DNA of 64,000 bases from a virus: positions 1-64,000 of the IMG/VR virus record IMGVR_UViG_3300014039_000003; one strand, 5' to 3'. The position numbers and the translations under genes are program-made. The notes below the pieces were generated by a model. The model did no database searches. It was given only the letters and a program-made list of their open reading frames with translations, and had not been told where the DNA came from. Positions 3,076-33,772 of the stretch are shown piece after piece. Every line of letters begins with the position of its first letter. Within the stretch, counting starts at the first letter, position 1.

Positions 3076-3342
3076 TTGGAGGGAAAAATGGAACATCAAA
3101 CAGTAGTGGCAAAAACAAAAAATGGAGATGAGTTTGTAGCTTGTTCCGGTCTTGGAAGCGAGCTCTGCTCAATACATAGCTGCGAGTCGTGCCCTAAAAT
3201 GAAATCAATTCGGGACAGCGTAAGCAAGCTCGGATATACTGGAAATGGAAATGACTTTGCAGAGCTATTAAATTATCTATTCAATAAGGAGTGTGAGCAG
3301 TTTGGAAATTATGCTGTTATGGAGGTGTGTATGTCAGATTGA
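3076..3342 (+). CDS. Possible HicB-like antitoxin (88 aa)
   Basis: Weak resemblance to HicB N-terminal domain; 16-nt overlap with downstream HicA. Confidence 0.4.
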   Translation: MEGKMEHQTVVAKTKNGDEFVACSGLGSELCSIHSCESCPKMKSIRDSVSKLGYTGNGNDFAELLNYLFNKECEQFGNYAVMEVCMSD

Positions 3343-3524
3343 CTCAGTTCAAAGTAAAAGAGTTTAAGAGAATCCTACGGGATAACGGCTATGAGGAGGT
3401 GAGATGTTGCGGTAGTCATCAAACTTGGAGCAACGGCGCAAACAAAATCACTTTGCCGACAGTCAAGTTGAGTCCTGTTATAGCGGCTCGACTCATAAAG
3501 GAAAATGATTTGACTGTCCAATAA
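3327..3524 (+). CDS. hicA: HicA-family mRNA interferase toxin
   Basis: KEFKRILRDNGYEEVR..GSHQ...ITLP matches YcfA/HicA fold signature. Confidence 0.7.
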   Translation: MYVRLTQFKVKEFKRILRDNGYEEVRCCGSHQTWSNGANKITLPTVKLSPVIAARLIKENDLTVQ

Positions 3525-3537
3525 AAGTGACAACATA

Positions 3538-3586
3538 CAACAGGTAAAAATTTCCTGTTGACAAGAGAATTTTTTAGGACTATAAT
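3538..3586 (+). promoter_or_regulatory. Consensus sigma70-type promoter (TTGACA-17-TATAAT) with 7-bp-arm palindrome CAACAGG..CCTGTTG overlapping the -35
   Basis: TTGACA 3558-3563, TATAAT 3581-3586; palindrome 3538-3560. Confidence 0.6.
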
Positions 3587-3627
3587 AAAAATGTAAACGG
3601 AACAAATGTTCGATTGAAGTTCGATTA

Positions 3628-4023
3628 ATGAAAGGAGAATTTTGTAAAATGGGATTTTTGGGTTCATTTCTTGGTCTGCTTGGTGCTTCGGCAGTGTTTG
3701 TCGGAGCTGATGTTAAAGAGCGTTGGGACGAGATAGACCGTGAGCGGCAGCGTATTGCGGCAAACCCTGCACCGCCTCCGGAGATGAGAGGAAATTTAAG
3801 AAGAAAATATGAGTCCGAGTGGCACAGAGGTGACAATACCCACTTCCCGGATGAGTATCTTCCTGCTCTTGAGAGCGACCCCGAAGTGCTTTACTGGTGG
3901 ATTGAGCTTCTCGCTGAGCGCGAAATAAAGCGTCAGGGTTATCGCGGCTTCCATGTCAATATTCAGGGCAATTTTAATCGAGTATATAATGCTTGGAAGG
4001 AGCGTCAGAATTGGGTCAGATAA
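3628..4023 (+). CDS. Hypothetical protein with N-terminal hydrophobic segment
   Basis: ORF; first gene after the consensus promoter. Confidence 0.5.
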   Translation: MKGEFCKMGFLGSFLGLLGASAVFVGADVKERWDEIDRERQRIAANPAPPPEMRGNLRRKYESEWHRGDNTHFPDEYLPALESDPEVLYWWIELLAEREIKRQGYRGFHVNIQGNFNRVYNAWKERQNWVR

Positions 4024-4961
4024 CCAGTGTTGATGTTAATAAAGATGTACTTATTGACGGTCTGAAAGCTCAGAACGCAAGACTAAAAAAGCTCCTCCGC
4101 GAAACAGCAGAAGAGCGAGACAGATACAAATCCCTATGGGAAACAAATCGGATTCCAAATGAAATCTCGGAAGAGGAGCGAAAAGCAAATCGGCGATTAG
4201 AACAAGAGAAAAAGCAGGAGCGGTTGCTGTCCGGTGTAAAGTCGGACGGCGTTCCAATAGCTCATGCAGCGGATTCAATTCGTTCCTATGATGAAATGTG
4301 CGTCGTGTTGGATAAGCTCAAGAACACAGGGCGAATGGGAATACGAAATTGGGCTATGTTCCGCTGCGGTATTTGCTTCGGTCTCAGGGCGAGCGACCTC
4401 GTTAAATTAAAATGGGGTTGGATCATGGACGACGACGGCGAGTTCAGAGACCGTATACCCGTGGTCGAGAGCAAGACGTCTAAAATCAATCGGTGCTTCA
4501 TTTCAGACGCGATAAAGGAAACGCTTACAGAATATCGCAAGTGGCTCGGCGGACGAAACTGTTCTCCCGACGATTACATCTTCTCGAAGAATAACGGCGG
4601 AAGATTGCAGGAGCAAAGCTATTCACGATATCTCAAAAATGCAGGAAAGGAAGCGGGGCTTCCAATACACATCTCGTCTCATACCATGAGAAAATCGTTT
4701 GCAAATATAGTATTATGCTGTCACGACGGCGGCGCGAATGATTACGCTATGAGAGACTTGCAGGGTATGCTCGGGCATTCAGATGTAAGAATCACGATGA
4801 GTTACCTCAAGGACACAATCCTCAGATACGACGAGGCAAGAAAGGCGGTGTCGGATTTCGTTCTCGGTAAGACAGATATAAACGAGTTAGTTACTTCAAA
4901 ACAGGTTTCCAATAATGAAATTTACGAGCTTTGCAAAGAAATGTTTGGAAAAGTTGCGTAA
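3993..4961 (+). CDS. int: Tyrosine-type site-specific recombinase / phage integrase
   Basis: R...HTMRKSFA...LGHSDVRITMSYL (R-H-R-Y catalytic region); start may be downstream of 3993. Confidence 0.85.
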   Translation: MEGASELGQITSVDVNKDVLIDGLKAQNARLKKLLRETAEERDRYKSLWETNRIPNEISEEERKANRRLEQEKKQERLLSGVKSDGVPIAHAADSIRSYDEMCVVLDKLKNTGRMGIRNWAMFRCGICFGLRASDLVKLKWGWIMDDDGEFRDRIPVVESKTSKINRCFISDAIKETLTEYRKWLGGRNCSPDDYIFSKNNGGRLQEQSYSRYLKNAGKEAGLPIHISSHTMRKSFANIVLCCHDGGANDYAMRDLQGMLGHSDVRITMSYLKDTILRYDEARKAVSDFVLGKTDINELVTSKQVSNNEIYELCKEMFGKVA

Positions 4962-4977
4962 ATTATTTTCATAGTTT

Positions 4978-5247
4978 TTGGTAAATCAACAAAGTGAGGT
5001 GATATACTTGACTCGTAAGAACAAGAGAGCACTCGCGAGAGCTGCTCGATACATAAACGACAGGGTCGAATTTGCAAACGACATCTTAGATGACGAAGAG
5101 GATCGACTCGATGGTTGGGCGGAGAATCTGAAGGGTTCTCAAAAACATATGGACGCAGAAGACTTTGTTGAAGATGTCCGTGAACAGTTTGATATAATAA
5201 CTGACGCGGTAGAAGAAATACGGTCTTTGTGCGGAATAGAAGACTAA
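4978..5247 (+). CDS. Hypothetical acidic protein (alternative TTG start 5009 with GAGGTG RBS)
   Basis: ORF. Confidence 0.4.
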   Translation: MVNQQSEVIYLTRKNKRALARAARYINDRVEFANDILDDEEDRLDGWAENLKGSQKHMDAEDFVEDVREQFDIITDAVEEIRSLCGIED

Positions 5248-5431
5248 AAAAGAAGACTCCCCACGAAAGGGTAAAAGCGTTTGGCGACGGCTTCCCAATT
5301 CGATGAGGAGGAACGACATTCGTATGCTCTTATACTAAACACTGGCGTGTTTTTATAGGGACATAGTCCTGCCATTGTCATTATAACACAAGGGCGGTTG
5401 AATGTCAACGAGAAAATAGGAGGAATTTATT

Positions 5432-5704
5432 GTGCAAAAACCTAAAATTGTTTACATTGCCGTTGACGACGACGAGTATGAGCTTCCATTCGCTATGGGC
5501 GACACGATGCGAGAACTTGCCGAAGAGATTGGAGTCTCCACTTGGGACATATGGAATTGCGTCAAGAATCGGGGACGCAGTACAACGCCCTTCAATCATA
5601 CATATCGTGTCGAGAAAGTCAGACTTGCCTCTGATATGGAGGACATACTTGACTTTGGCACGGACAGAGACATTTACAATATAACAATTAATGTTTATGT
5701 ATAA
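5432..5704 (+). CDS. Hypothetical protein with HTH-like segment (GTG start)
   Basis: AGGAGG RBS 8 nt upstream of GTG. Confidence 0.5.
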   Translation: MQKPKIVYIAVDDDEYELPFAMGDTMRELAEEIGVSTWDIWNCVKNRGRSTTPFNHTYRVEKVRLASDMEDILDFGTDRDIYNITINVYV

Positions 5705-6314
5705 GTCAAATTCGAAAATAATAAAAGGACTTTCGCTTGCTCTGGCGCTGAGCATAGGAGCATTCCTCATGGTTGGTAACGCCCTGCCGGTAGAAGCTCC
5801 GAGCGCAGAGGTAACTGAAATCGAAACCGAAAACGAATCGGTTTTGGATTTGAAAACGGAAATGGAATCCGAAACAGAAACCGCCTCCGTCACAGAACAG
5901 CGAAAGCCTACCGATTCAAAAACGAAATACGACGAGATAATCGCCGAGATCGCCGAAAAGTACGGCGTCTCGGCGGCTCTTATCAAAGCGGTTATCAAAA
6001 CGGAAAGCAATTTCAACCCGACCTTGGTTAGTGCGACCAACGACTATGGTTTGATGCAAATCAACGCCTGTAATGTATCGTGGCTTGCAGACGAGCTGGG
6101 CGTCACAGATTTGTTTGATCCAGCGCAGAACATCGAAAGCGGTGTGTATATCCTCAGCGGATATTTGAAGCGCTATTCGCTTGCAGATGCGCTGATGGCT
6201 TACAACTGTGGCGAGGGTGGAGCGAAACGCCTATGGAAACAGGGTGTTCACTCTACTCACTATACGAAAAAGGTATTGAAAAACTTGGATGAATTTGGAG
6301 GATTTTATGAATAG
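5691..6314 (+). CDS. Secreted lytic transglycosylase (SLT/GH23 domain) with signal peptide
   Basis: ES..F.P and GLMQIN catalytic motifs; N-terminal signal-like segment. Confidence 0.75.
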   Translation: MFMYKSNSKIIKGLSLALALSIGAFLMVGNALPVEAPSAEVTEIETENESVLDLKTEMESETETASVTEQRKPTDSKTKYDEIIAEIAEKYGVSAALIKAVIKTESNFNPTLVSATNDYGLMQINACNVSWLADELGVTDLFDPAQNIESGVYILSGYLKRYSLADALMAYNCGEGGAKRLWKQGVHSTHYTKKVLKNLDEFGGFYE

Positions 6315-6543
6315 ACATAGATGTTTCGCGGACAGAGGAAGCTGCTGCGCTGTGCTTACAGAAAAGCTGTGCGAATACGGCGGTTGTCGGTTCTATAAAA
6401 CCGAACAGCAGCTCTACAACGAAAGACAGTTTGTAGACAGATACATACAGAATAAATACGGGGTTAGCCGTAGGGAATATGTGAGAAACAAATACGGCAG
6501 TGAGCTTTTGAACTACAGGAGGAGACGAAATGAGGAAGTCTAA
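6307..6543 (+). CDS. Hypothetical Cys-rich basic protein
   Basis: ORF. Confidence 0.35.
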   Translation: MNRHRCFADRGSCCAVLTEKLCEYGGCRFYKTEQQLYNERQFVDRYIQNKYGVSRREYVRNKYGSELLNYRRRRNEEV

Positions 6544-6748
6544 ACTTTTCACTCTGATAGCTCACGAGGTTGTGCCTCGGAAATGCGTAAACAACATGGA
6601 GTTTGTTGGCTATGTTGCCCGGTGCAGTCAGTGTGGCGAACCAATAGCAATCCACTATAAGCTCGACGACGAGTTGAGAGTTACGGTTCTACCGAGATTC
6701 AAAAGATTCACAGAGGAAATAGAAAAGAAAATTAAAGGAGGAATTTAA
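6530..6748 (+). CDS. Small zinc-ribbon-like protein
   Basis: C..C...C..C spacing. Confidence 0.4.
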   Translation: MRKSKLFTLIAHEVVPRKCVNNMEFVGYVARCSQCGEPIAIHYKLDDELRVTVLPRFKRFTEEIEKKIKGGI

Positions 6749-7527
6749 TGGAAGAGAATAAAATGACACTATTCACAAACGAAGAGCTTGGAAATGTCAG
6801 GGCATTGGAGATCGACGGTGAGCCGTATTTCGTTGGCAAGGATGTAGCCAACATCCTCGGGTACCAAAACGGTAGTCGAGATATTAACCGTCATGTAGAT
6901 GAAGAGGATAGGCACAAGGTTATGCTCTTTGATGGTAATCAGGATAAGGAAACCATCATTATCAACGAGTCTGGTCTTTACAGTCTTATACTTTCAAGCA
7001 AACTCCCAAAAGCAAAAGAGTTCAAGCATTGGATAACCGCTGAAGTCCTACCCGTTATCCGTAAGACGGGCGGCTATGTAAACGACACGAAGCAGTTCGT
7101 CGATTATTACTTCGCAGACTGCAATACATATGGGCGAGAAGCTATTACGCTTATGCTCAACGAAACAAAACGAATGGCAAATCAGCTGAAGGCTCAGGCT
7201 CCAAAGGTGCTGTTCGCTGAGGCTGTAGAAGGCTCGAAGACATCTATTCCAGTTGGCGACCTTGCAAAGCTCATAAAACAGAATGGCGTTGACATCGGGC
7301 AGAATCGTCTGTTCTCGTGGTTGAGAATGAATGATTATCTGATAAAGTCGGGCGATAGAAAGAATATGCCGACACAGAAGTCTATGGATTTAGGGCTGTT
7401 CGAGGTTAAGATATCGACTTTCTACAGACCTGACGGCACGGTGGATATTGCGAAGACACCGAAGGTTACAGGTAAAGGTCAGACTTATCTTATTAACAAA
7501 TTCTTGTCGAGTTTAAAAGGAGCGTGA
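6748..7527 (+). CDS. Bro-N / KilA-C (ANT) domain antirepressor
   Basis: N-terminal Bro-N-like (FxxxEL..VR....DGEPWFVGKDVA..LGY) plus C-terminal antirepressor region; AGGAGG RBS. Confidence 0.8.
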   Translation: MEENKMTLFTNEELGNVRALEIDGEPYFVGKDVANILGYQNGSRDINRHVDEEDRHKVMLFDGNQDKETIIINESGLYSLILSSKLPKAKEFKHWITAEVLPVIRKTGGYVNDTKQFVDYYFADCNTYGREAITLMLNETKRMANQLKAQAPKVLFAEAVEGSKTSIPVGDLAKLIKQNGVDIGQNRLFSWLRMNDYLIKSGDRKNMPTQKSMDLGLFEVKISTFYRPDGTVDIAKTPKVTGKGQTYLINKFLSSLKGA

Positions 7528-8805
7528 GTCAGTATAAAGAAAATCCTTATTGGCGGTAGTCCTTGTACAAAGTGGAGTATCGCTCAGAAAAACGGAAGAG
7601 AAGTTTTACCCGAAGGTGTCGGTTGGGAATTATTCGAGAACTATCGAATGGCAAAAGAAAAATTCCAACCTGACATCTTCTTATATGAGAACAACAAGTC
7701 GGCGGCTCAACCCATAAAAGATGCAATTTACTCTGCTCTTGGGGGGGGCAAGGATTCACTGGTTCGGCTCACTCATATAGACAGTGCATTGGTTTCAGCA
7801 CAACATCGTCAAAGGTTCTATGTTACGAATTTTGGTGATATAGAACAGCCGGAAGACAGAGGAATTTTACTTCGCGATGTGCTTGAAAGCGGAAGAGACT
7901 TGTCTTGCCGTGAAAAGGCATATACGCTCACAGCCAGTTATGGCGGAGCGGTAGCGTGGAACACACTGGAAAGAAATCAGCGAACGATGGTTATAGAGCC
8001 AGTATGCGTGGAATCTGTAGTTGGTGAGTCAATTCAAAAAATGATTCCTGCCGTTGTTGATAGACTGGGCTTTTTACCAGAGAAATTCAATGCTTATAAC
8101 TGTGCCGAAATAAAGGACAAATCGCCGTCGCTCACAACGGGAAGTATGGTTACGAGCAGTTGCGCTACTACAATTTTGGAGCCGGTACGCATCGGAACCA
8201 TAGAGAGCAATGTAAAGAATAAGTCGCACGATAGCAAACAATATCGTGTGTATAGTCCTAATGGAAAAGCAACTACGCTTTGTGGACAAGGTGGCGGCGT
8301 GGGCGCGAAGACGGGCTTATATGCAGTACCAATTAACGGTGTGCATAAGGAGTTTCCCGTCTATGAGGTTAAGGATGGGTTTATAACAATTAAGGACAAG
8401 CAATATCCGATTAAGCTCGCCGATGGATATTACCTTATACGAAAGCTTACACCGTTAGAGTGTGAGAGACTGCAAACTCTTCCGGATGGTTATACGAGCG
8501 GAGTTAGTGATACTCAACGATATCGTGCTATTGGCAATGGGTGGACGGCAGAGGTTATTATACATATTTTAAATCATGCTCTTAAAGATGTCCCGAGAGA
8601 CGAAGAGATTGTGGTTCTGTCCATGTATGACGGCATAGCGACCGGGCGGTATTGCTTGGATAAGATGGGTTTTACGAATGTCAGGTATTATGCCTACGAA
8701 ATAGACCCATATCCGATAAAGATAGCGATGTCAAACTATCCCGATATCATCCAGTGCGGTGATGCCTTTCAGATTAGGGGCGATAACTGGAAAATTCCAG
8801 CCTAA
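7528..8805 (+). CDS. Circularly permuted DNA (cytosine-5)-methyltransferase. Motif order IV(PC)-VI(ENN)-VIII(QxRxR)-TRD-X-I-II-III. No canonical start codon before the PC motif; first ATG is 7648
   Basis: GGSPCTKWSIA (IV), FLYENNKS (VI), QHRQRFYVTNF (VIII), YRAIGNGWTAEV (X), then LSMYDGIATG (I), AYEIDPYPIKIAMSNYPD (II), GDAF (III) at C-terminus. Confidence 0.65.
   Translation, partial: VSIKKILIGGSPCTKWSIAQKNGREVLPEGVGWELFENYRMAKEKFQPDIFLYENNKSAAQPIKDAIYSALGGGKDSLVRLTHIDSALVSAQHRQRFYVTNFGDIEQPEDRGILLRDVLESGRDLSCREKAYTLTASYGGAVAWNTLERNQRTMVIEPVCVESVVGESIQKMIPAVVDRLGFLPEKFNAYNCAEIKDKSPSLTTGSMVTSSCATTILEPVRIGTIESNVKNKSHDSKQYRVYSPNGKATTLCGQGGGVGAKTGLYAVPINGVHKEFPVYEVKDGFITIKDKQYPIKLADGYYLIRKLTPLECERLQTLPDGYTSGVSDTQRYRAIGNGWTAEVIIHILNHALKDVPRDEEIVVLSMYDGIATGRYCLDKMGFTNVRYYAYEIDPYPIKIAMSNYPDIIQCGDAFQIRGDNWKIPA
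7741..7748 (+). repeat. G8 homopolymeric tract inside C5-MTase ORF (encodes GGG)
   Basis: gggggggg; potential slipped-strand site. Confidence 0.9.
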
Positions 8806-8840
8806 AAGGAATTGGGTTTCGATTTGAAAATTGAAAATGA

Positions 8841-8849
8841 GGGGGGGGG
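8841..8849 (+). repeat. G9 homopolymeric tract forming the SD/spacer of the downstream amino-MTase
   Basis: ggggggggg 7 nt upstream of ATG 8857. Confidence 0.9.
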
Positions 8850-8856
8850 AAATGAA

Positions 8857-9460
8857 ATGGCTCAGGATTGGAGTGGTGATGCAAATTCCGTATATAAAAT
8901 CATTGGGGCGTCGAACCACTCAAATGAAAGTAGGGCAGATGATGATTATTACGCGACTGACCCGAAGGCGGTGGAGGAGCTGCTGAAACGAGAGAAATTT
9001 GCTCACTATGTGTGGGAACCTTGTTGTGGCGGCGGACACATATCAAAAGTGTTGGAAGCTCATGGCTACGACGTTCTGTCGAGTGACATTGTGGATAGAG
9101 GTTATCCTAATACATATGTGGCTGACTTCTTAAGTGTTGCCCCCCCCTGCTGAGTGTATATCACGCGATATTATCACGAACCCGCCGTACAAATACGCCA
9201 AGGAATTTATAGAGAAAGCCTTAGAAATATCTATGGATTCGGTCAAGATAGCAATGTTTCTTAAGGTTACATTTCTTGAAGGTAAGGCAAGACGGGAGTT
9301 GTTTGATAAAGCTCCACCGAAATATGTGTATGTGTTTTCAGGCAGAGTAAACTGTGCCAAGAACGGTGACTTCAGCAAAACTGAGTCGAGTGCTGTGGCG
9401 TATGCATGGTTCGTTTGGGAAAAGGGTTTCAAAGGCGAGCCGAAAATTAGATGGATTTAA
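8857..9460 (+). CDS. Small DNA amino-methyltransferase (motif I EPCCGGG then motif IV NPPY). Split into two ORFs (8857-9153, 9134-9460) by +1 frameshift at a C8 tract, likely phase-variable
   Basis: FxGxG-like VWEPCCGGGHIS, acidic D after beta2, IITNPPYKY. Deleting one C at 9140-9147 fuses the frames. Confidence 0.65.
9140..9147 (+). repeat. C8 homopolymeric tract at frameshift point of amino-MTase
   Basis: cccccccc. Confidence 0.9.
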
Positions 9461-9478
9461 AATCAAGGAGGAAATCGA

Positions 9479-10375
9479 ATGATATTTAGTATTGTAATGA
9501 TAGTTATAGCTGTGGTTTTCACGGCTGTAGGTGCGATTTTAGCTTACAGAAAGAGAGAGTATAGAGACAACATTCCGGCGGCGGCTCCTATAGTAAGCTT
9601 CGTGCTGGCGATATGTCTATTCGTACTCTCAGCTTCAGCGGCTATTGTGCCGACCGGATATACGGGAGTAAGAACGACGCTCGGTCAGATAAGCGACCAG
9701 CCCGTACATAGTGGCTTCAACTGGAAAGCGCCCATTGTTCAGAGCATAAAGCTCGTAAATAATAAACAGCAGGATGCACAGTTCGGCGGTGACAAAATCT
9801 GGTCGGAGACTGAAAGCAGAACAGCAGTTTATTATGCAGGTGTAACCGTTACTTATCAGATTAACCCCGACAGGTCGGCGTGGATCTACGCTAATGTTTC
9901 GGACTACAAGAACTCTCTGGTGTCTGAAAACATAGTTGCTTCGGCTATTAAGTCCAGCAGCAAAGTACTTAGCGATATCGACGCGACGAACCGCTCGATA
10001 GTTGAACCGCTGATAATGAAAAATCTTCAGGCTTCTATAGACGAGAAGTACGGCGAGGATGTTGTTGCGATACTCAAAGTAACGGTAAGTGATATCGACT
10101 TTGACGAGTCATATCAGGCGGCGATAGCATCAAAACAGCAGGCTCAGCTTGCGGCAGAACAGCAGGAAATCGAGAACAAAAAGGCTGTAGATAAGGCAAA
10201 GGCAGATGCAGAGGCAAAGCTCATAAAATCTAAGGCTGAGGCTGAAGCAAATGACACTCTTGAGAAGTCCCTGACGGATAAGATTCTTAAAGAAAAATAC
10301 ATAGAGAAGTGGGACGGAAAGCTCCCGAGTGTGATGACCGGCGACGACGGAAGTTCGATAATGATTCAGAAGTAA
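9479..10375 (+). CDS. SPFH/Band-7 (prohibitin/HflKC-like) membrane protein
   Basis: N-terminal TMs, SPFH core, C-terminal Ala/Lys/Glu coiled coil. Confidence 0.7.
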   Translation: MIFSIVMIVIAVVFTAVGAILAYRKREYRDNIPAAAPIVSFVLAICLFVLSASAAIVPTGYTGVRTTLGQISDQPVHSGFNWKAPIVQSIKLVNNKQQDAQFGGDKIWSETESRTAVYYAGVTVTYQINPDRSAWIYANVSDYKNSLVSENIVASAIKSSSKVLSDIDATNRSIVEPLIMKNLQASIDEKYGEDVVAILKVTVSDIDFDESYQAAIASKQQAQLAAEQQEIENKKAVDKAKADAEAKLIKSKAEAEANDTLEKSLTDKILKEKYIEKWDGKLPSVMTGDDGSSIMIQK

Positions 10376-10386
10376 GGAGGGAATGA

Positions 10387-12621
10387 ATGAGGGTATTACT
10401 GTTGTTGCGCGGTAGTGCTGGGTGCGGTAAGTCAACATGGATTGAAAAGAATGGACTTAAACCCTATACACTATCCGCCGACGAGATAAGGTTGATGTAC
10501 GCTTCGCCCACTTTAAATGTTTGTGGTGAAGAGTGTATAAGTCAGTCGAATGACACTAAGGTCTGGAAGACGCTTTTTCAGATTCTTGAGTCTCGAATGG
10601 AGCGAGGCGAATTTACCGTTATCGACGCGACGAACTCCAAAACTTCCGAGATGAAGCGCTATGCGGAGCTTTGTAATCGCTATCGCTATAGGATTTACTG
10701 CGTGGACCTTACTGACATTCCCATAGAGGAAACAAAAAGACGAAACAAAATGAGATCTGTAGTTAAGCAGGTTCCTGAAACGGTAATCGACAATATGTAT
10801 GCTCGTTTCGCTACTCAGAAAATTCCGTCGGGGATAACCGTTATAAAACCGGACGAGCTTTCAAAGGTGTGGTTCAAACCTATGGATGTTTCGGAATACG
10901 ATGCGCTTCATTTTATTGGAGATGTTCATGGTTGTTATACGGCACTCAAAGAAGCAATTGGAGATATAACCGAGAAGCCTAATGAGCTGTTTGTGTTCTG
11001 TGGAGACTATACTGACAGAGGAATTGAAAATGCAGAGGTAGTAGAGGAGCTCCTGCGTATCTATAAAGAGCCGAATGTATATCTCTTAGAAGGAAATCAC
11101 GAGAGACATATGTGGGTTTGGGCTAATGACGGAACTACTGGATCGAAAGAGTTCGAGATGCATACAAGAGCTCAGCTTGAAAGTGCTTCTTTTACTAAAA
11201 AGGATGTTCGCAAACTTTACAGAAGTTTCGGGCAGTGCGCCTATTATACATATCGTGGCAAGACTATATTGGCTACACACGGTGGTCTTAGTACGCTGCC
11301 TGATAATCTCACACTGGTATCTACCGACCAAATGATTAAGGGCTCCGGGAATTATAGCGACGCCGACGTTGTTGACCAGTCTTTTTGTGAAAATACTGAT
11401 GCTTATCAGGTACATGGACACAGAAACCTTAAAGGAAACCCCGTCCAGACTTACAGAGCTTTTAATCTTGAGGGGAATGTTGAGTTTGGAGGCTCGATAA
11501 GAACTGTCAGTTTTGTCGGTGATGAGATAAAGGTGAATGAGTTTAAAAACAATATATATTCACCGACTGAAGAGAGGGTTGATTACACTGCAAAGGTTAA
11601 AAAGAGTGAATCCGTTGCAGATGCTATTCTGGCTCTGAGAAGCAATAAACAGGTAGTTGAGAAGCAGTTCGGTGATATCTCGTCTTTTAACTTCTCAAAA
11701 CAGGCTTTCTTTGACAAGATATGGGACGAGCAGACGATTAGAGCACGAGGCTTGTATATCAACATTCCTAAAGGAAAAATAGTCGCGAGGGGTTATACAA
11801 AGTTCTTTAATATAAATGAGCGACCGGAGACAAAGTTTGATATGTTGCAGTGCAAGCTTAAGTTCCCCGTAACCGCATATGTCAAAGAAAATGGATTCCT
11901 TGGTTTAGTTTCGTATAACGAGATAAATGATTCTCTGTTTGTTACAACGAAATCCAACCCGGATGGTGATTATGCGTCGTGGCTTAAAGAGATGATAGAT
12001 AAGAAAATCTCTGTTGACACACAGCAGAAAATGAAAGAATTTTCAAAAGAGAACAATGTAACATTCGTGTTTGAGTGTGTTGATATGCAGAGAGATCCGC
12101 ACATAATTGATTACCCCGAAAATCATCTTTTCTTGCTTGATATTGTTTACAACGAATTGAAGTTCAAAAAGTTCGATTATGACGAGCTTATAAGTGTTGC
12201 TAACAAGTTCGGGCTTGAGCGCAAAGAGCAGGCTGTCGTAATTAATGATTGGCAGACATTCTTCGATTGGTATTACACAGTTACAGCACCTAATTATCTT
12301 TATGATAATAGGCATATAGAGGGTTTTGTTGTTGAAGACGCCGACGGTTACATGGTTAAGCTTAAACTCACTTATTATAATCTTTGGAAGTATCTTCGCG
12401 GCGTTTCCTATAAAGTTCTTAGACGTGGACATCTTGATGGTAAGGACACTTCGTCGCTCACAACGCCATTAATGAACCAATATTATGCATGGCTCAGACG
12501 AATTTATGCAGAGACGGAGGATAGAGAGTCAATACCGCGTGATATCTGCTCGCTTAGAAAACTATTCTACGCATCGGACGAAGGAAGAGATTTTGCAAAG
12601 GAGGGAAACGATAATGATTGA
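10387..12621 (+). CDS. Pnkp-like RNA repair enzyme: P-loop polynucleotide kinase + calcineurin-type phosphoesterase + RNA-ligase-like nucleotidyltransferase
   Basis: GSAGCGKST Walker A; GDVHG/GDYTDRG/GNHE/HGG/GH phosphoesterase motifs; ligase motifs KENGF (I), EGFVV (IV), MVKLK (V). Confidence 0.75.
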   Translation: MRVLLLLRGSAGCGKSTWIEKNGLKPYTLSADEIRLMYASPTLNVCGEECISQSNDTKVWKTLFQILESRMERGEFTVIDATNSKTSEMKRYAELCNRYRYRIYCVDLTDIPIEETKRRNKMRSVVKQVPETVIDNMYARFATQKIPSGITVIKPDELSKVWFKPMDVSEYDALHFIGDVHGCYTALKEAIGDITEKPNELFVFCGDYTDRGIENAEVVEELLRIYKEPNVYLLEGNHERHMWVWANDGTTGSKEFEMHTRAQLESASFTKKDVRKLYRSFGQCAYYTYRGKTILATHGGLSTLPDNLTLVSTDQMIKGSGNYSDADVVDQSFCENTDAYQVHGHRNLKGNPVQTYRAFNLEGNVEFGGSIRTVSFVGDEIKVNEFKNNIYSPTEERVDYTAKVKKSESVADAILALRSNKQVVEKQFGDISSFNFSKQAFFDKIWDEQTIRARGLYINIPKGKIVARGYTKFFNINERPETKFDMLQCKLKFPVTAYVKENGFLGLVSYNEINDSLFVTTKSNPDGDYASWLKEMIDKKISVDTQQKMKEFSKENNVTFVFECVDMQRDPHIIDYPENHLFLLDIVYNELKFKKFDYDELISVANKFGLERKEQAVVINDWQTFFDWYYTVTAPNYLYDNRHIEGFVVEDADGYMVKLKLTYYNLWKYLRGVSYKVLRRGHLDGKDTSSLTTPLMNQYYAWLRRIYAETEDRESIPRDICSLRKLFYASDEGRDFAKEGNDND

Positions 12622-31343: not shown

Positions 31344-31958
31344 TTATTCGCCGCTTTGGCAGCGACACATAACAATCTTATAGTCACCGGCTCCCAAAAT
31401 ACGAGTAGCCGTTGCATAAACCATTAGTTTGCCATTCTCGTAATACATAGTACCATTATAACTGGCTGAGCTTAGTTTGTTTGTTTTTCCCGCCACATAT
31501 ATGTTTGTGCCTCCACCCGAGCGCACGGAGAGCCCATACATAAATCCGCCAATTGCGATGTTTCCGCTCATATTGAGTAGAATATAATTGTTGGTTTGTT
31601 GTGTTGTTGTTGGGAATAACATAACAACAAAGTCATCATCGGCGTGGTGTTCTGTTAAGAACTCGTCGTTCTGAAGCACCGTCGTTACTGTGGTTGCATC
31701 GGATGACAAGGTAAAGTCCACAGTTTTTATTTGAGTCGCTCCTTGCGCCACAGCGACAACAACTGACGCAAAATCGGTTACGTCATATGTTCCGTTAGCT
31801 GTTATCTGCTTTGTGCCGCTCGGACCCGCCCCGCCATCCTGAGTGTTCTTTACGACAATATCTCCCTCGCAATACTTACCGGCAGTTTTAAGTGTCTTTG
31901 TTGAATCTGTTGAGATATTTGCAATAACACTATTCTTATATGTGATTTCGACAGACAT
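31344..31958 (-). CDS. Tail fibre-associated protein
   Basis: Position downstream of tailspike; Gly/Thr-rich. Confidence 0.45.
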   Translation of the reverse strand: MSVEITYKNSVIANISTDSTKTLKTAGKYCEGDIVVKNTQDGGAGPSGTKQITANGTYDVTDFASVVVAVAQGATQIKTVDFTLSSDATTVTTVLQNDEFLTEHHADDDFVVMLFPTTTQQTNNYILLNMSGNIAIGGFMYGLSVRSGGGTNIYVAGKTNKLSSASYNGTMYYENGKLMVYATATRILGAGDYKIVMCRCQSGE

Positions 31959-33772
31959 TAGCTCGTACCTCCGTCATATTTGGGTAATGTGGCGAGTGTG
32001 AGATATCCTTGATTTTTTACCCATGTTTGTGTTACCTCCTGCGACGGAACATTAACTATTTGTTTATAATCTACCTTAATACCACTTGCTAATGTGCCTA
32101 CTTGCTCATATGTTAGATCCTCGTTAACTGTTATAATGGGAGCACCATCGCTGGTAACGGAGTAAACATTAAGCTTGAAATATGCCGCCGCATCGTTCGC
32201 AATCGTAAACTGACATCCGTTCTCGCCCGCTACATAATCCTTAACAAAGTAATATGATTTATTGTCAATAAGATTTCCGCGATTAACAAGCGTTAATTTC
32301 GAGTAATCGTTCTTATACAGAATTACCCGGCAATTATCATCGCCGGGATCAAAAGAAATACCCTTTAATCTAATAATCGCTCCTACGCTACAAGGAATAA
32401 ATCCTGTACAAAGAAGACCGCTTGCGGTGGAAAGCGTTGTACCATCCGTTCCCCACATTTTCCCAATTTGATAACCAGCTTCACCAAATACACTTCCATC
32501 AGTTGCAGTTGCAGTGGGCAACCTGTTTGTGAACTGCGGGACAAGTGTTGTTTGAAAAGTAGCATCATACGCTTCTTTCAAAAGTAGCTCCTTGTTTTCT
32601 GAACCTGTGAAGAACATAGGCGTATCGCCGATAGGCTTAAACCAACGAGTAAATGGCTCTTGCAAAATGGTTATTTTTTCAAGATTGCTATCTGTATCGG
32701 TGTAAATCAACCTCCGAATGTCATAAGAAGGCATTTCATAATAAAAGAAATCATTAAGAATTGTCCCACTACAATTTCCAGTCATTGCTATATGCTGATA
32801 TATACATCCCGTAGAGGTGTCGCCACTCCAAAGTGTATTATTCGAGTTCCAATCCCACACTCTACTACCGCTGAGATCTGTGTTTCGAGACCGAATAAGT
32901 TGAATTCCATATTTAGCGTAAGAGACATTTGTGCCAGCTGTTGTAAGTGCTGGACGCGGCTGTATGGTGGCAGATATATACGCATTATTGCAATCCTCTA
33001 AGCATACGCCAATTTCGCAGGCGTCAATTACAGCCTCGATACGAGCCTCGTGGCACCAACCAGACCCAACCATCTTGGCGTGTATTCCAAAGGCAAAAGC
33101 CCCCGCAATTCGTATACCCGAGAAATTTAACCCCCAAATAAAGGTGGAAGTTGCCGAACTATCTGCTTCTATGTAAACAGCTGTACCGCTACAAGTTCCA
33201 TCTACAGAATAATGAAACCCCCTACTGTCTGTCTTGGTGATACAGACATCTGTAATATAGCGCCCGGTTTTCCACTGAGGATCCCACTTGTTATACGGCG
33301 GTACGTCGGTTACGCTATTATCAAGCGAGGAAGCAACATAGATGACACTTTTGCTAAATTCGTAAGGAACTCTTATCACTGCGTGGTTTCCTTTAAGATA
33401 AGCTGACATTTTCATAGCTATGCAATTTTCTGACGTCTGCGTAAAATCAAGCACAGTATCGGTATTCAATTCTAACCTACACGCGTCGCGAATTGTCAAC
33501 ACATCAGAAAGTTTGTATGTTCCCGCAGGAACATATACACACCTGTATTGAAGTAGTGCCGTTTGGAAAGCCGCCGTATCATCCGTTACCCCATCTCCTT
33601 TCGCGCCGAGGGTTCGGACATTGACCCCCCCCATAAGTTTTACCCCGCTTAATTGTGTAGCCATAATATCGACCTTGGCTTCCTCTGTAACAAGAACATC
33701 ATTCTCAGTTAAATAAGTTTTTAAGGTACTTTTTGCATTTTTTATGCGCTCAATTTCTGAGTTTATACTCAT
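31958..33772 (-). CDS. Tailspike/depolymerase with pectate-lyase-fold (right-handed beta-helix)
   Basis: VRTLGAKGDGVTDDTAAFQTAL signature of Pectate_lyase_3/GH28-like tailspikes. Confidence 0.75.
   Translation of the reverse strand: MSINSEIERIKNAKSTLKTYLTENDVLVTEEAKVDIMATQLSGVKLMGGVNVRTLGAKGDGVTDDTAAFQTALLQYRCVYVPAGTYKLSDVLTIRDACRLELNTDTVLDFTQTSENCIAMKMSAYLKGNHAVIRVPYEFSKSVIYVASSLDNSVTDVPPYNKWDPQWKTGRYITDVCITKTDSRGFHYSVDGTCSGTAVYIEADSSATSTFIWGLNFSGIRIAGAFAFGIHAKMVGSGWCHEARIEAVIDACEIGVCLEDCNNAYISATIQPRPALTTAGTNVSYAKYGIQLIRSRNTDLSGSRVWDWNSNNTLWSGDTSTGCIYQHIAMTGNCSGTILNDFFYYEMPSYDIRRLIYTDTDSNLEKITILQEPFTRWFKPIGDTPMFFTGSENKELLLKEAYDATFQTTLVPQFTNRLPTATATDGSVFGEAGYQIGKMWGTDGTTLSTASGLLCTGFIPCSVGAIIRLKGISFDPGDDNCRVILYKNDYSKLTLVNRGNLIDNKSYYFVKDYVAGENGCQFTIANDAAAYFKLNVYSVTSDGAPIITVNEDLTYEQVGTLASGIKVDYKQIVNVPSQEVTQTWVKNQGYLTLATLPKYDGGTS
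33615..33621 (-). repeat. G7 tract (coding strand) inside tailspike ORF
   Basis: ccccccc on plus strand. Confidence 0.8.

Follow-up and report, generated by a model that had tools for sequence, protein, structure and literature searches.

How can a phage gene encode a complete methyltransferase when the segment carrying its catalytic cysteine has none of the usual start codons in frame? The question is raised by a 64,000-nucleotide stretch of viral DNA, referred to as the window (positions 1 to 64,000 of the IMG/VR virus record IMGVR_UViG_3300014039_000003), in which an open reading frame (ORF) at 7534-8805 on the + strand encodes a DNA C5-cytosine methyltransferase (MTase) with its motifs in a circularly permuted order. 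The ORF stands directly behind a gene of the Bro-N/KilAC type, here called Bro/KilAC. Comparison with related sequences indicates that 7534-8805 is probably a functional orphan C5-MTase, initiated at an ATA codon, carried by a temperate phage of gut Clostridia and belonging to a large permuted family. The evidence for the permutation is presented below, followed by that for the start codon and by the explanations that compete with it. Feature coordinates are collected in Table 1.

A C5-MTase cut between motifs III and IV

Read in frame from 7528, the peptide runs VSIKKILIGGSPCTKWSIA...YENNK...SAQHRQRFY...AIGNGWTAEV...VVLSMYDGIATG...YAYEIDPYPIKIAMSNYPD...GDAF. The motifs of the 423-residue protein are thus arranged as IV-VI-VIII-target-recognition domain (TRD)-X-I-II-III: instead of the canonical linear order I to X, the series from IV to X comes first and motifs I-III follow. 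The motif list of the original prediction, which was made from the DNA letters alone, is correct residue for residue. Of the catalytic motifs, IV holds the PC Cys, VI the Glu of ENx and VIII the QxRxR; all three are present and are invariant in an alignment of 45 sequences, in which the invariance of all motifs was judged.

Profile and pairwise comparisons agree on the position of the cut. Against Pfam PF00145 (cutoff 22 bits), the sequence translated from 7534 scores 69.5 bits (E = 4.4e-19). Aligned with DNMT3A (PDB 2qrv), query residues 355-411, which hold motifs I-III, fall on residues 13-70, while query 4-122 falls on 86-207 and query 307-346 on 244-285. BLASTP against four relatives of canonical order places query 4-352 on subject 66-461 and query 361-421 on subject 3-68; the segments 1-65 and 66-end of these relatives are found in the window protein as 66-end followed by 1-65. 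The NCBIfam dcm profile is covered by residues 4-347 over its positions 63-327 only, and the score of 65.9 bits stays below the cutoff of 100.65 because motifs I-III sit at the C-terminus. All three sets of alignments map permuted segments, which bears out the proposed circular permutation of a C5-MTase with its breakpoint between motifs III and IV.

The predicted structure is that of the same enzyme class. A single-sequence AlphaFold2 model was unusable, with a predicted local distance difference test score (pLDDT) of 32.5, and was replaced by a run with the 45-sequence alignment, which reached a pLDDT of 77.9 (above 90 in the catalytic core) and a predicted template modelling score of 0.78. 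The top Foldseek matches of this model in the PDB are all C5-MTases, namely M.HhaI, NtDRM/DRM2, DNMT3A/B and M.MpeI, with E down to 9e-11. Compared with a canonical enzyme, a segment of ~65 residues that binds S-adenosylmethionine (AdoMet) and holds motifs I-III would have been moved from the N-terminus to the C-terminus, and the chain would begin with the strand that precedes the catalytic PC motif (IV).

The region between motifs VIII and X is the variable one. Target-recognition cassettes and lengths differ even between homologues that are ~90% identical in the conserved blocks (P0012, P0024, P0048, P0118), the proteins being 338-435 amino acids long overall. This suggests, at the level of sequence, frequent TRD swapping and differing specificities within the permuted family.

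A permuted family in Clostridia and their phages

The order found in the window is shared by many proteins. When 1.84 billion cluster representatives were searched exhaustively, 10,619 matched at E <= 1e-3, of which 1,043 reach E <= 1e-30, and the best 150 representatives of 50%-identity clusters were classified. At least 67 of these 150 are clearly permuted and another 24 have the canonical order. Nearly all of the 67 permuted proteins start with 'M[IK][KR][IL]L[IL]GGSPC', the Met being six residues before GGSPC, and end ~60 amino acids past motif I; the N-terminus "M-x-K-x-L-x-GGSPC" is seen in hundreds of homologues, encoded by Clostridia or by phages of Clostridia. Relatives are encoded in 42 species genomes, mostly of Clostridia; Butyricicoccus pullicaecorum DSM 23266 and Criibacterium bergeronii are two isolates among them. 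Where the motif IV region was recovered, nearly all genome loci are permuted, L082 and L083 having the canonical order. A few deposited phages carry the permuted form as well, such as Phage nd4, where it is annotated as a 'hypothetical protein', and the best PHROG match of the window MTase is a family of 'unknown function'. Matches were also obtained in Vibrio, ICP1 and Pelagibacter phages; translation of two of them, from Vibrio phage 1.242.O and from ICP1, gave enzymes of canonical order that lie outside the permuted family.

Judged from these alignments, the permutation is a trait of the family and, for that reason, the window copy is neither a local rearrangement nor a pseudogene fragment. 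The original prediction had held that a canonical start ahead of motif IV in homologues would argue for a rearranged pseudogene. Such homologues exist, yet what they show is the normal architecture of the family.

Two permuted relatives outside the window, P0129 and P0136, contain an intein-like insertion of ~370-400 amino acids exactly at the catalytic Cys, reading GGSP-CFVAGT...VVHN-CT[HY]WS.

A conserved ATA as the putative start codon

Within 7528-7647 no ATG, GTG or TTG occurs in frame, and the ORF listing begins at ATG 7648. The broader statement that this segment lacks the three codons altogether holds for the reading frame but not literally, as TTG and GTG exist out of frame (e.g. TTG 7550). 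Automated gene calls start at ATG 7648 or at other internal codons and lose the PC motif (P0008, P0020, P0075); many database entries of the family are N-terminally truncated because the true start would not be ATG, GTG or TTG.

The position of the start is indicated by the homologues. P0140 begins MKKILIGGSPC, and in the window the ATA at 7534-7536 precedes the same KKILIGGSPC. Among genomes of diverse Clostridia, the codon at this Met position is ATG 28 times and GTG three times, each behind a Shine-Dalgarno (SD) sequence. The phage clade in which the MTase adjoins Bro (39 loci) has ATA in 35 cases, ATT in four, and never ATG. An SD-like purine block lies 6-11 nt 5' of the ATA or ATT in every junction haplotype, with at least 12 distinct upstream haplotypes, as it does 5' of the ATG or GTG in distant homologues. 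A non-canonical ATA/ATT start is therefore the sole supported scenario among those offered for expression of the gene: it aligns with the ATG or GTG of homologues and is conserved together with the SD in the clade. Translation most likely starts at this conserved weak codon and not by stop-codon readthrough, as far as the aligned junctions can indicate.

Initiation at such codons has precedents. In Escherichia coli, AUA supports ~1-2% of AUG initiation, with a range of 0.02-3% (bioRxiv 10.1101/063800). Ribo-Ret has located AUA starts in the Firmicute Staphylococcus aureus, at infC, ccpN and citZ, where output is ~10-30% of that from AUG and depends on an extended SD (PMC13009471). The hosts of the present family are Clostridia with strong SD usage, according to the window genes and to the names of the relatives' organisms. 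The infC and pcnB genes of E. coli, like infC, ccpN and citZ of S. aureus, also carry a conserved near-cognate Ile codon (AUU or AUA) behind a strong or extended SD, an arrangement expected to reduce output. The window case differs in that it concerns a phage gene, that the start is 0-6 nt from an upstream stop, and that it was placed from sequence alone.

A TTG located 5' of the SD, as called in P0001, was considered as a general start and rejected: it is absent from the window and cut off by a TGA in L023, L037, L038, L092 and L095. RNA structure around the start is not significant (folding of 7490-7590, z = -1.29).

Selection, the Bro junction and competing explanations

The ORF read from the ATA is under strong purifying selection. 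Over the 38 codons 5' of ATG 7648, the ratio of nonsynonymous to synonymous differences per site (pN/pS) is 0.04-0.19 over all pairs, with 7 synonymous and 1 nonsynonymous differences against L021 and 14 and 5 against L012. Over the full length, clade members compared with the window give a ratio of nonsynonymous to synonymous substitution rates (dN/dS) of 0.05-0.17 at a pS of 0.4-0.57. ORFs read from ATA or ATT are intact in 14 of the 14 clade members analysed (358-424 codons) and in 6 of 8 further loci. As ATA/ATT is common to all clade members, their divergence accumulated after the canonical start had been lost, and constraint during that divergence speaks against a dead gene as well as against an N-truncated product. 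A catalytically dead remnant beginning at ATG 7648, one of the options left by the original prediction, or a recent pseudogene that has lost its ATG, would explain why gene callers choose ATG 7648, why the adjoining N6-adenine MTase (N6A-MTase) gene is frameshifted in the window and why L094 is frameshifted within its poly-G run. It is nevertheless highly unlikely, given that the codons 5' of 7648 are strongly constrained in a clade devoid of canonical starts, that ATG 7648 is replaced by Ile in most relatives, that the clade ORFs are intact to the extent given above, and that the ATA is fixed across lineages diverged to a pS of ~0.5.

The junction with Bro/KilAC bears on the two remaining alternatives. 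As was noticed at the outset, the MTase shares its frame with Bro/KilAC across the single TGA 7525-7527, the sole stop separating the two ORFs, and in-frame TGA junctions 6 nt upstream of the start recur in L003, L021/22, L027, L043, L088, L090 and L094. This would suit a programmed TGA readthrough yielding a Bro/KilAC-methyltransferase fusion as the active form. Other lineages are built differently, however. A 1-nt indel puts Bro in another frame, with its TAA overlapping the start as ATAA, in L012-16, L030, L031 and L042, and the same overlap has arisen independently in L024 and L093; L017-20 have an in-frame TAA 3 nt before an ATT; and an insert of 223-350 nt with stops separates Bro from the MTase in two further types, one (L001 type) in which a TTG ORF behind the insert runs on into the MTase, with CGA in place of TGA, and one in which a 7-codon TTG...TGA mini-ORF comes next (L023, L037, L038, L092, L095). 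As the frame of Bro, the stop and the spacing all vary among lineages, readthrough to a fusion cannot account for expression in general. The wider permuted family has its Met at exactly the ATA position and lacks Bro, no recoding structure is evident in the folded segment 7490-7590, and long ORFs elsewhere in the window are normal under code 11, which together make readthrough barely credible. Closer to the preferred reading is initiation within 7528-7551 that is not directed by the SD to the ATA, for example as reinitiation, independent of a start codon, by ribosomes that have ended at the Bro stop, or at the downstream Ile codons ATC 7543 or ATT 7549. The Bro stop does lie 0-6 nt from the ATA or ATT in all Bro-adjacent lineages, including the two independent ATAA overlaps, and the TTG...TGA mini-ORF of some insert-bearing lineages terminates at the equivalent position. 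Yet L001-type loci keep the SD and the ATA with no ORF terminating just upstream, ATC 7543 and ATT 7549 are 20-26 nt from the SD, and the homologous Met position points to the ATA codon; this alternative is unlikely. Across the junctions compared, the SD and the ATA are conserved, and the in-frame stop is not.

Two other explanations of the junction were rejected. An alternative genetic code or TGA recoding is at odds with the long ORFs that are intact under code 11 throughout the window, and a sequencing artefact with the identical junction in independent samples (L003, L094, L043).

Several points weigh against a functional enzyme started at ATA 7534. ATA initiates weakly, its distance of 11 nt from GGAG is near the upper limit of common spacings, and insert-bearing relatives such as L001 have an in-frame TTG 33 nt upstream, a possible alternative start. 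Phage mosaicism that had recently placed one dead 5' junction in front of live genes could in principle inflate the apparent purifying selection, and differences in poly-G length could be assembly errors. With the near-identical contig L094 frameshifted and the adjoining N6A-MTase gene of the window broken, some decay of the methylase module in the window lineage is conceivable.

For the preferred reading, initiation at ATA 7534, the following mechanism is proposed. In the Bro-adjacent clade, the ancestral ATG of the family would have been replaced by the ATA at 7534-7536, where initiation of low efficiency would be directed by the AAAGGAG within the 3' end of Bro/KilAC. Such initiation is probably assisted, through translational coupling, by ribosomes that finish Bro at a stop 0-6 nt away; the ATAA overlap, which recurs, resembles the ATGA well known from coupled genes. 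The in-frame TGA would be incidental, and the poly-G run at 7741-7748 would add a slippage-prone on/off switch. Initiation at ATA, coupling to Bro, low expression, methylation activity and a role in anti-restriction are what we infer from this arrangement.

The insert between Bro and the MTase has features of its own. It occurs in L001 (3778-4000), L002, L007-L011, L023, L029, L035, L037, L038, L089, L091, L092 and L095, and shows terminal inverted repeats of ~35 nt that give a very stable fold (-94.7 kcal/mol, z = -7.9), and an internal promoter-like TTGATA-17-TAATAT. Its terminal motif AAGGAATTGGG is present in the window in one copy just past the MTase stop (8806-8819). A scan of L001 and L007 gave no Rfam family for the insert, the sole match being a HEARO RNA elsewhere. 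The insert may be an element resembling a miniature inverted-repeat transposable element, or a regulatory leader.

The poly-G tract and other homopolymers

Runs of at least six G or C are rare in the window: there are four in the 64 kb, at 7741-7748, 8841-8849, 9140-9147 and 33625-33632. The first, a G8, lies as predicted 94 nt into the ORF read from ATG 7648. Contigs with identical flanks differ in this tract. The run is in frame as G8 in the window and as G11, with one extra Gly, in L003; in L094 it is G7, a frameshift that leads to a stop after 81 codons. More distant relatives have the run interrupted as GGT GGG GGC, with the exceptions of L037 and L095, which show G8 after GGT. The tract is likely a slippage-prone contingency locus subject to phase variation, on the strength of these length differences.

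The other three runs touch neighbouring or distant genes. The G9 at 8841-8849 is the SD of the N6A-MTase gene. In relatives this place reads GAAGGGGAG or AGGGGG (G4-G5), and the run has therefore expanded in the window lineage; the expansion may tune translation of this second methylase. The gene itself, at 8857-9460, encodes a protein with an NPPY motif, both halves of which match PHROG 799 consecutively. In the window, a +1 difference just past the C8 at 9140-9147 splits it into two ORFs, 8812/8857-9153 and 9134-9460: the window reads 'C8 TGC TGAG' and L003 'C8 GT TGAG', where the N6A-MTase is a single ORF of 200 amino acids. The C8 at 33625-33632 corresponds to G8 on the coding strand, ~140 nt into the minus-strand gene 31958-33772, whose 604-amino-acid product is pectate-lyase-like (PF12708) and probably a tail fibre or depolymerase. 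This makes 33625-33632 a second candidate contingency locus.

Comparison with known methyltransferases

With canonical C5-MTases of the M.HhaI type (PF00145), the window protein has in common the fold, the PC Cys, the ENx Glu, the QxRxR, the GNxW and the DG-x-x-x-G of motif I. The nearest enzymes of canonical order are relatives such as P0181 and P0248, and the MTase of Vibrio phage ICP1; canonical-order relatives are 36-46% identical over the large block. Residues 1-65 with motifs I-III are N-terminal in canonical enzymes, whereas their counterpart is C-terminal in the window MTase. DNMT3A, an animal enzyme, is the best sequence match in the PDB and its motif I, 'DGIATG', is nearly identical, but its order is canonical.

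Permuted C5-MTases have been described with other breakpoints. A REBASE survey of 2018 (Albert et al.) listed 27 natural ones, all cut in the variable region (PMC5944983). These zeta or 'Type H' enzymes, with the order IX-X-I...VIII, include M.BssHII, M.Alw26I, M2.Eco31I, M.Esp3I and M2.BsaI (PMC5944983). They too have a permuted C5 fold in which motif X is directly followed by motif I, as in the window MTase. Conversely, Type H enzymes are cut in the variable region, and the window MTase is cut between III and IV, with its N-terminus 6 residues before motif IV. Its motifs VI and VIII come after IV and before the TRD, which sets it outside Type H. The DRM2/NtDRM enzymes of plants share with it only the X-to-I junction, query 302-390 being contiguous with NtDRM 174-253. 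In DRM proteins, as reportedly described by Cao and colleagues in 2000, motifs VI-X precede I-V, so that the PC motif is not N-terminal. With its PC motif at residues 10-11, the window protein is not of the DRM type.

The same or an adjacent breakpoint is known from the laboratory. Active variants of cpM.HaeIII obtained by directed evolution start between motifs II and III, within III, or between III and IV (PMC5944983). Further engineered permutants are cp62 M.MpeI and cp58 M.SssI ('Type B/C'), and as the laboratory variants are enzymatically active the topology is viable; the window family differs from them in being natural and abundant. A limited literature search, which did not cover REBASE, found no published IV...X, I-III order for natural C5-MTases. 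A review of 2020 mentions 'one alternative permutation' (PMC7544214), and a classification of December 2025 has two topologies only for 5-methylcytosine (m5C) enzymes (bioRxiv 10.1101/2023.12.13.571470).

The linear order of the window MTase is the one seen in beta-class amino-MTases (M.PvuII, M.RsrI, CcrM), in which motifs IV-VIII are followed by the TRD, X and I-III (PMC7544214). Catalysis differs, DPPY or SPPY in the beta class against GGSPC with a Cys nucleophile in the window protein, and a sequence relationship is undetectable beyond the shared fold. By its motifs, the window protein is predicted to work like a C5 enzyme and not to be a member of the beta amino-MTases.

Significance of the permuted family

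More tentatively, and with the balance of probability slightly on the other side, the family could represent a large undescribed natural 'beta-like' class of C5 enzymes in which one clade has fixed an AUA at or next to the Bro stop, output being low, tied to Bro and gated by the poly-G run. If so, it would be the natural counterpart of the laboratory 'Type B/C' permutants, thought to be absent from nature. Textbooks and recent classifications hold one motif order for 5-methylcytosine enzymes, the one rare exception having its breakpoint in the variable region. A family that is abundant and has its breakpoint between III and IV would mean that nature also uses a topology that engineering and directed evolution had found viable, and C5 enzymes would gain a counterpart to the beta class of amino-methyltransferases.

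There would also be practical consequences. Collinear profile models under-score permuted proteins, and ATA starts are mis-called, with loss of the catalytic cysteine from the predicted proteins; surveys of gut-phage methylomes and restriction-modification would therefore miss or mis-annotate the family. Finally, a conserved ATA beside an upstream stop would be a clean natural system in which to study near-cognate initiation, and translational coupling, in phages of Firmicutes.

Gene neighbourhood

The window is the genome of a temperate phage, with an integrase (3993-4961), a primase-helicase, a DNA polymerase III alpha subunit, NrdD and tail genes. A megablast of 6700-9500 against 50,697 phage records returned no match at all, and the window is therefore without a close cultured relative. 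The MTase belongs to a run of + strand genes from ~5691 to past 12621 with zero predicted terminators between genes. In a promoter and terminator scan of 5000-10500, no + strand terminator was found between Bro and the MTase, and promoters and terminators were not enriched over shuffled sequences. Bro/KilAC holds the SD of the MTase within its final codons and ends 6 nt 5' of the MTase start; it is also the upstream neighbour of the MTase in related contigs.

Table 1. Features of the permuted MTase and of its junction with Bro/KilAC (window positions; invariance refers to the 45-sequence alignment).
Feature	Position	Strand	Remarks
Bro-N/KilAC (anti-repressor-like) gene	6748..7527	+	Pfam PF02498 2e-27, PF03374 2e-33; PHROG 130 anti-repressor Ant 7e-83
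Strong SD sequence AAAGGAG	7516..7522	+	extendable to AAAGGAG-C-GTGA through 7527; 11 nt 5' of ATA 7534
Bro/KilAC stop TGA	7525..7527	+	same frame as MTase; in-frame stop not conserved among sister lineages
Permuted DNA C5-cytosine MTase, coding sequence	7534..8805	+	423 codons plus TAA (8803-8805)
ATA, putative non-canonical initiation codon	7534..7536	+	aligns with start Met of permuted homologues
Motif IV GGSPC, catalytic Cys11	7552..7566	+	G7, G8, S9, P10, C11 invariant; aligns to DNMT3A 'GGSPC'
First in-frame ATG (Met39)	7648..7650	+	internal codon, not a conserved start; Ile in most homologues (YRIAKEKF)
Motif VI ENN, Glu52	7687..7695	+	E52, N53 invariant
Poly-G tract G8, Gly-Gly-Gly	7741..7748	+	hypermutable run, phase-variation-like
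Motif VIII QHRQR	7801..7815	+	R92, R94 invariant
Variable target-recognition region, residues ~110-300	7861..8433	+	low pLDDT at residues 120-212
Motif X GNGW	8533..8544	+	G334, N335, G336, W337 nearly invariant; aligns to M.HhaI and DNMT3A C-terminal motifs
Motif I VLSMYDGIATG (AdoMet binding), moved behind motif X	8614..8646	+	aligns to DNMT3A 'VLSLFDGIATG'
Motif II YAYEID, Glu389	8686..8706	+	E389 invariant
Motif III GDAF	8758..8769	+	G409 invariant; D410, A411, F412 nearly invariant; C-terminus 11 residues on

Other observations concern the surroundings of the module. A perfect sigma-70 consensus promoter, TTGACA-17-TATAAT with a TG, is found on the minus strand at 5380-5408; it faces leftward and is divergent from the rightward gene run that holds Bro and the methylases. 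The upstream Bro/KilAC gene is itself disrupted in the sister genome L003, a contig 99% identical to the window, where Bro-N and KilAC are called as separate ORFs of 129 and 124 amino acids (3101-3880). A HEARO (IscB-associated) RNA is detected with 106 bits near the methylase module of a related phage contig (L001, 2144-2366), and IS605-family TnpB genes adjoin the module in L002 (3241-4335) and L021 (4788-5882). This makes the region a hotspot of small mobile elements.

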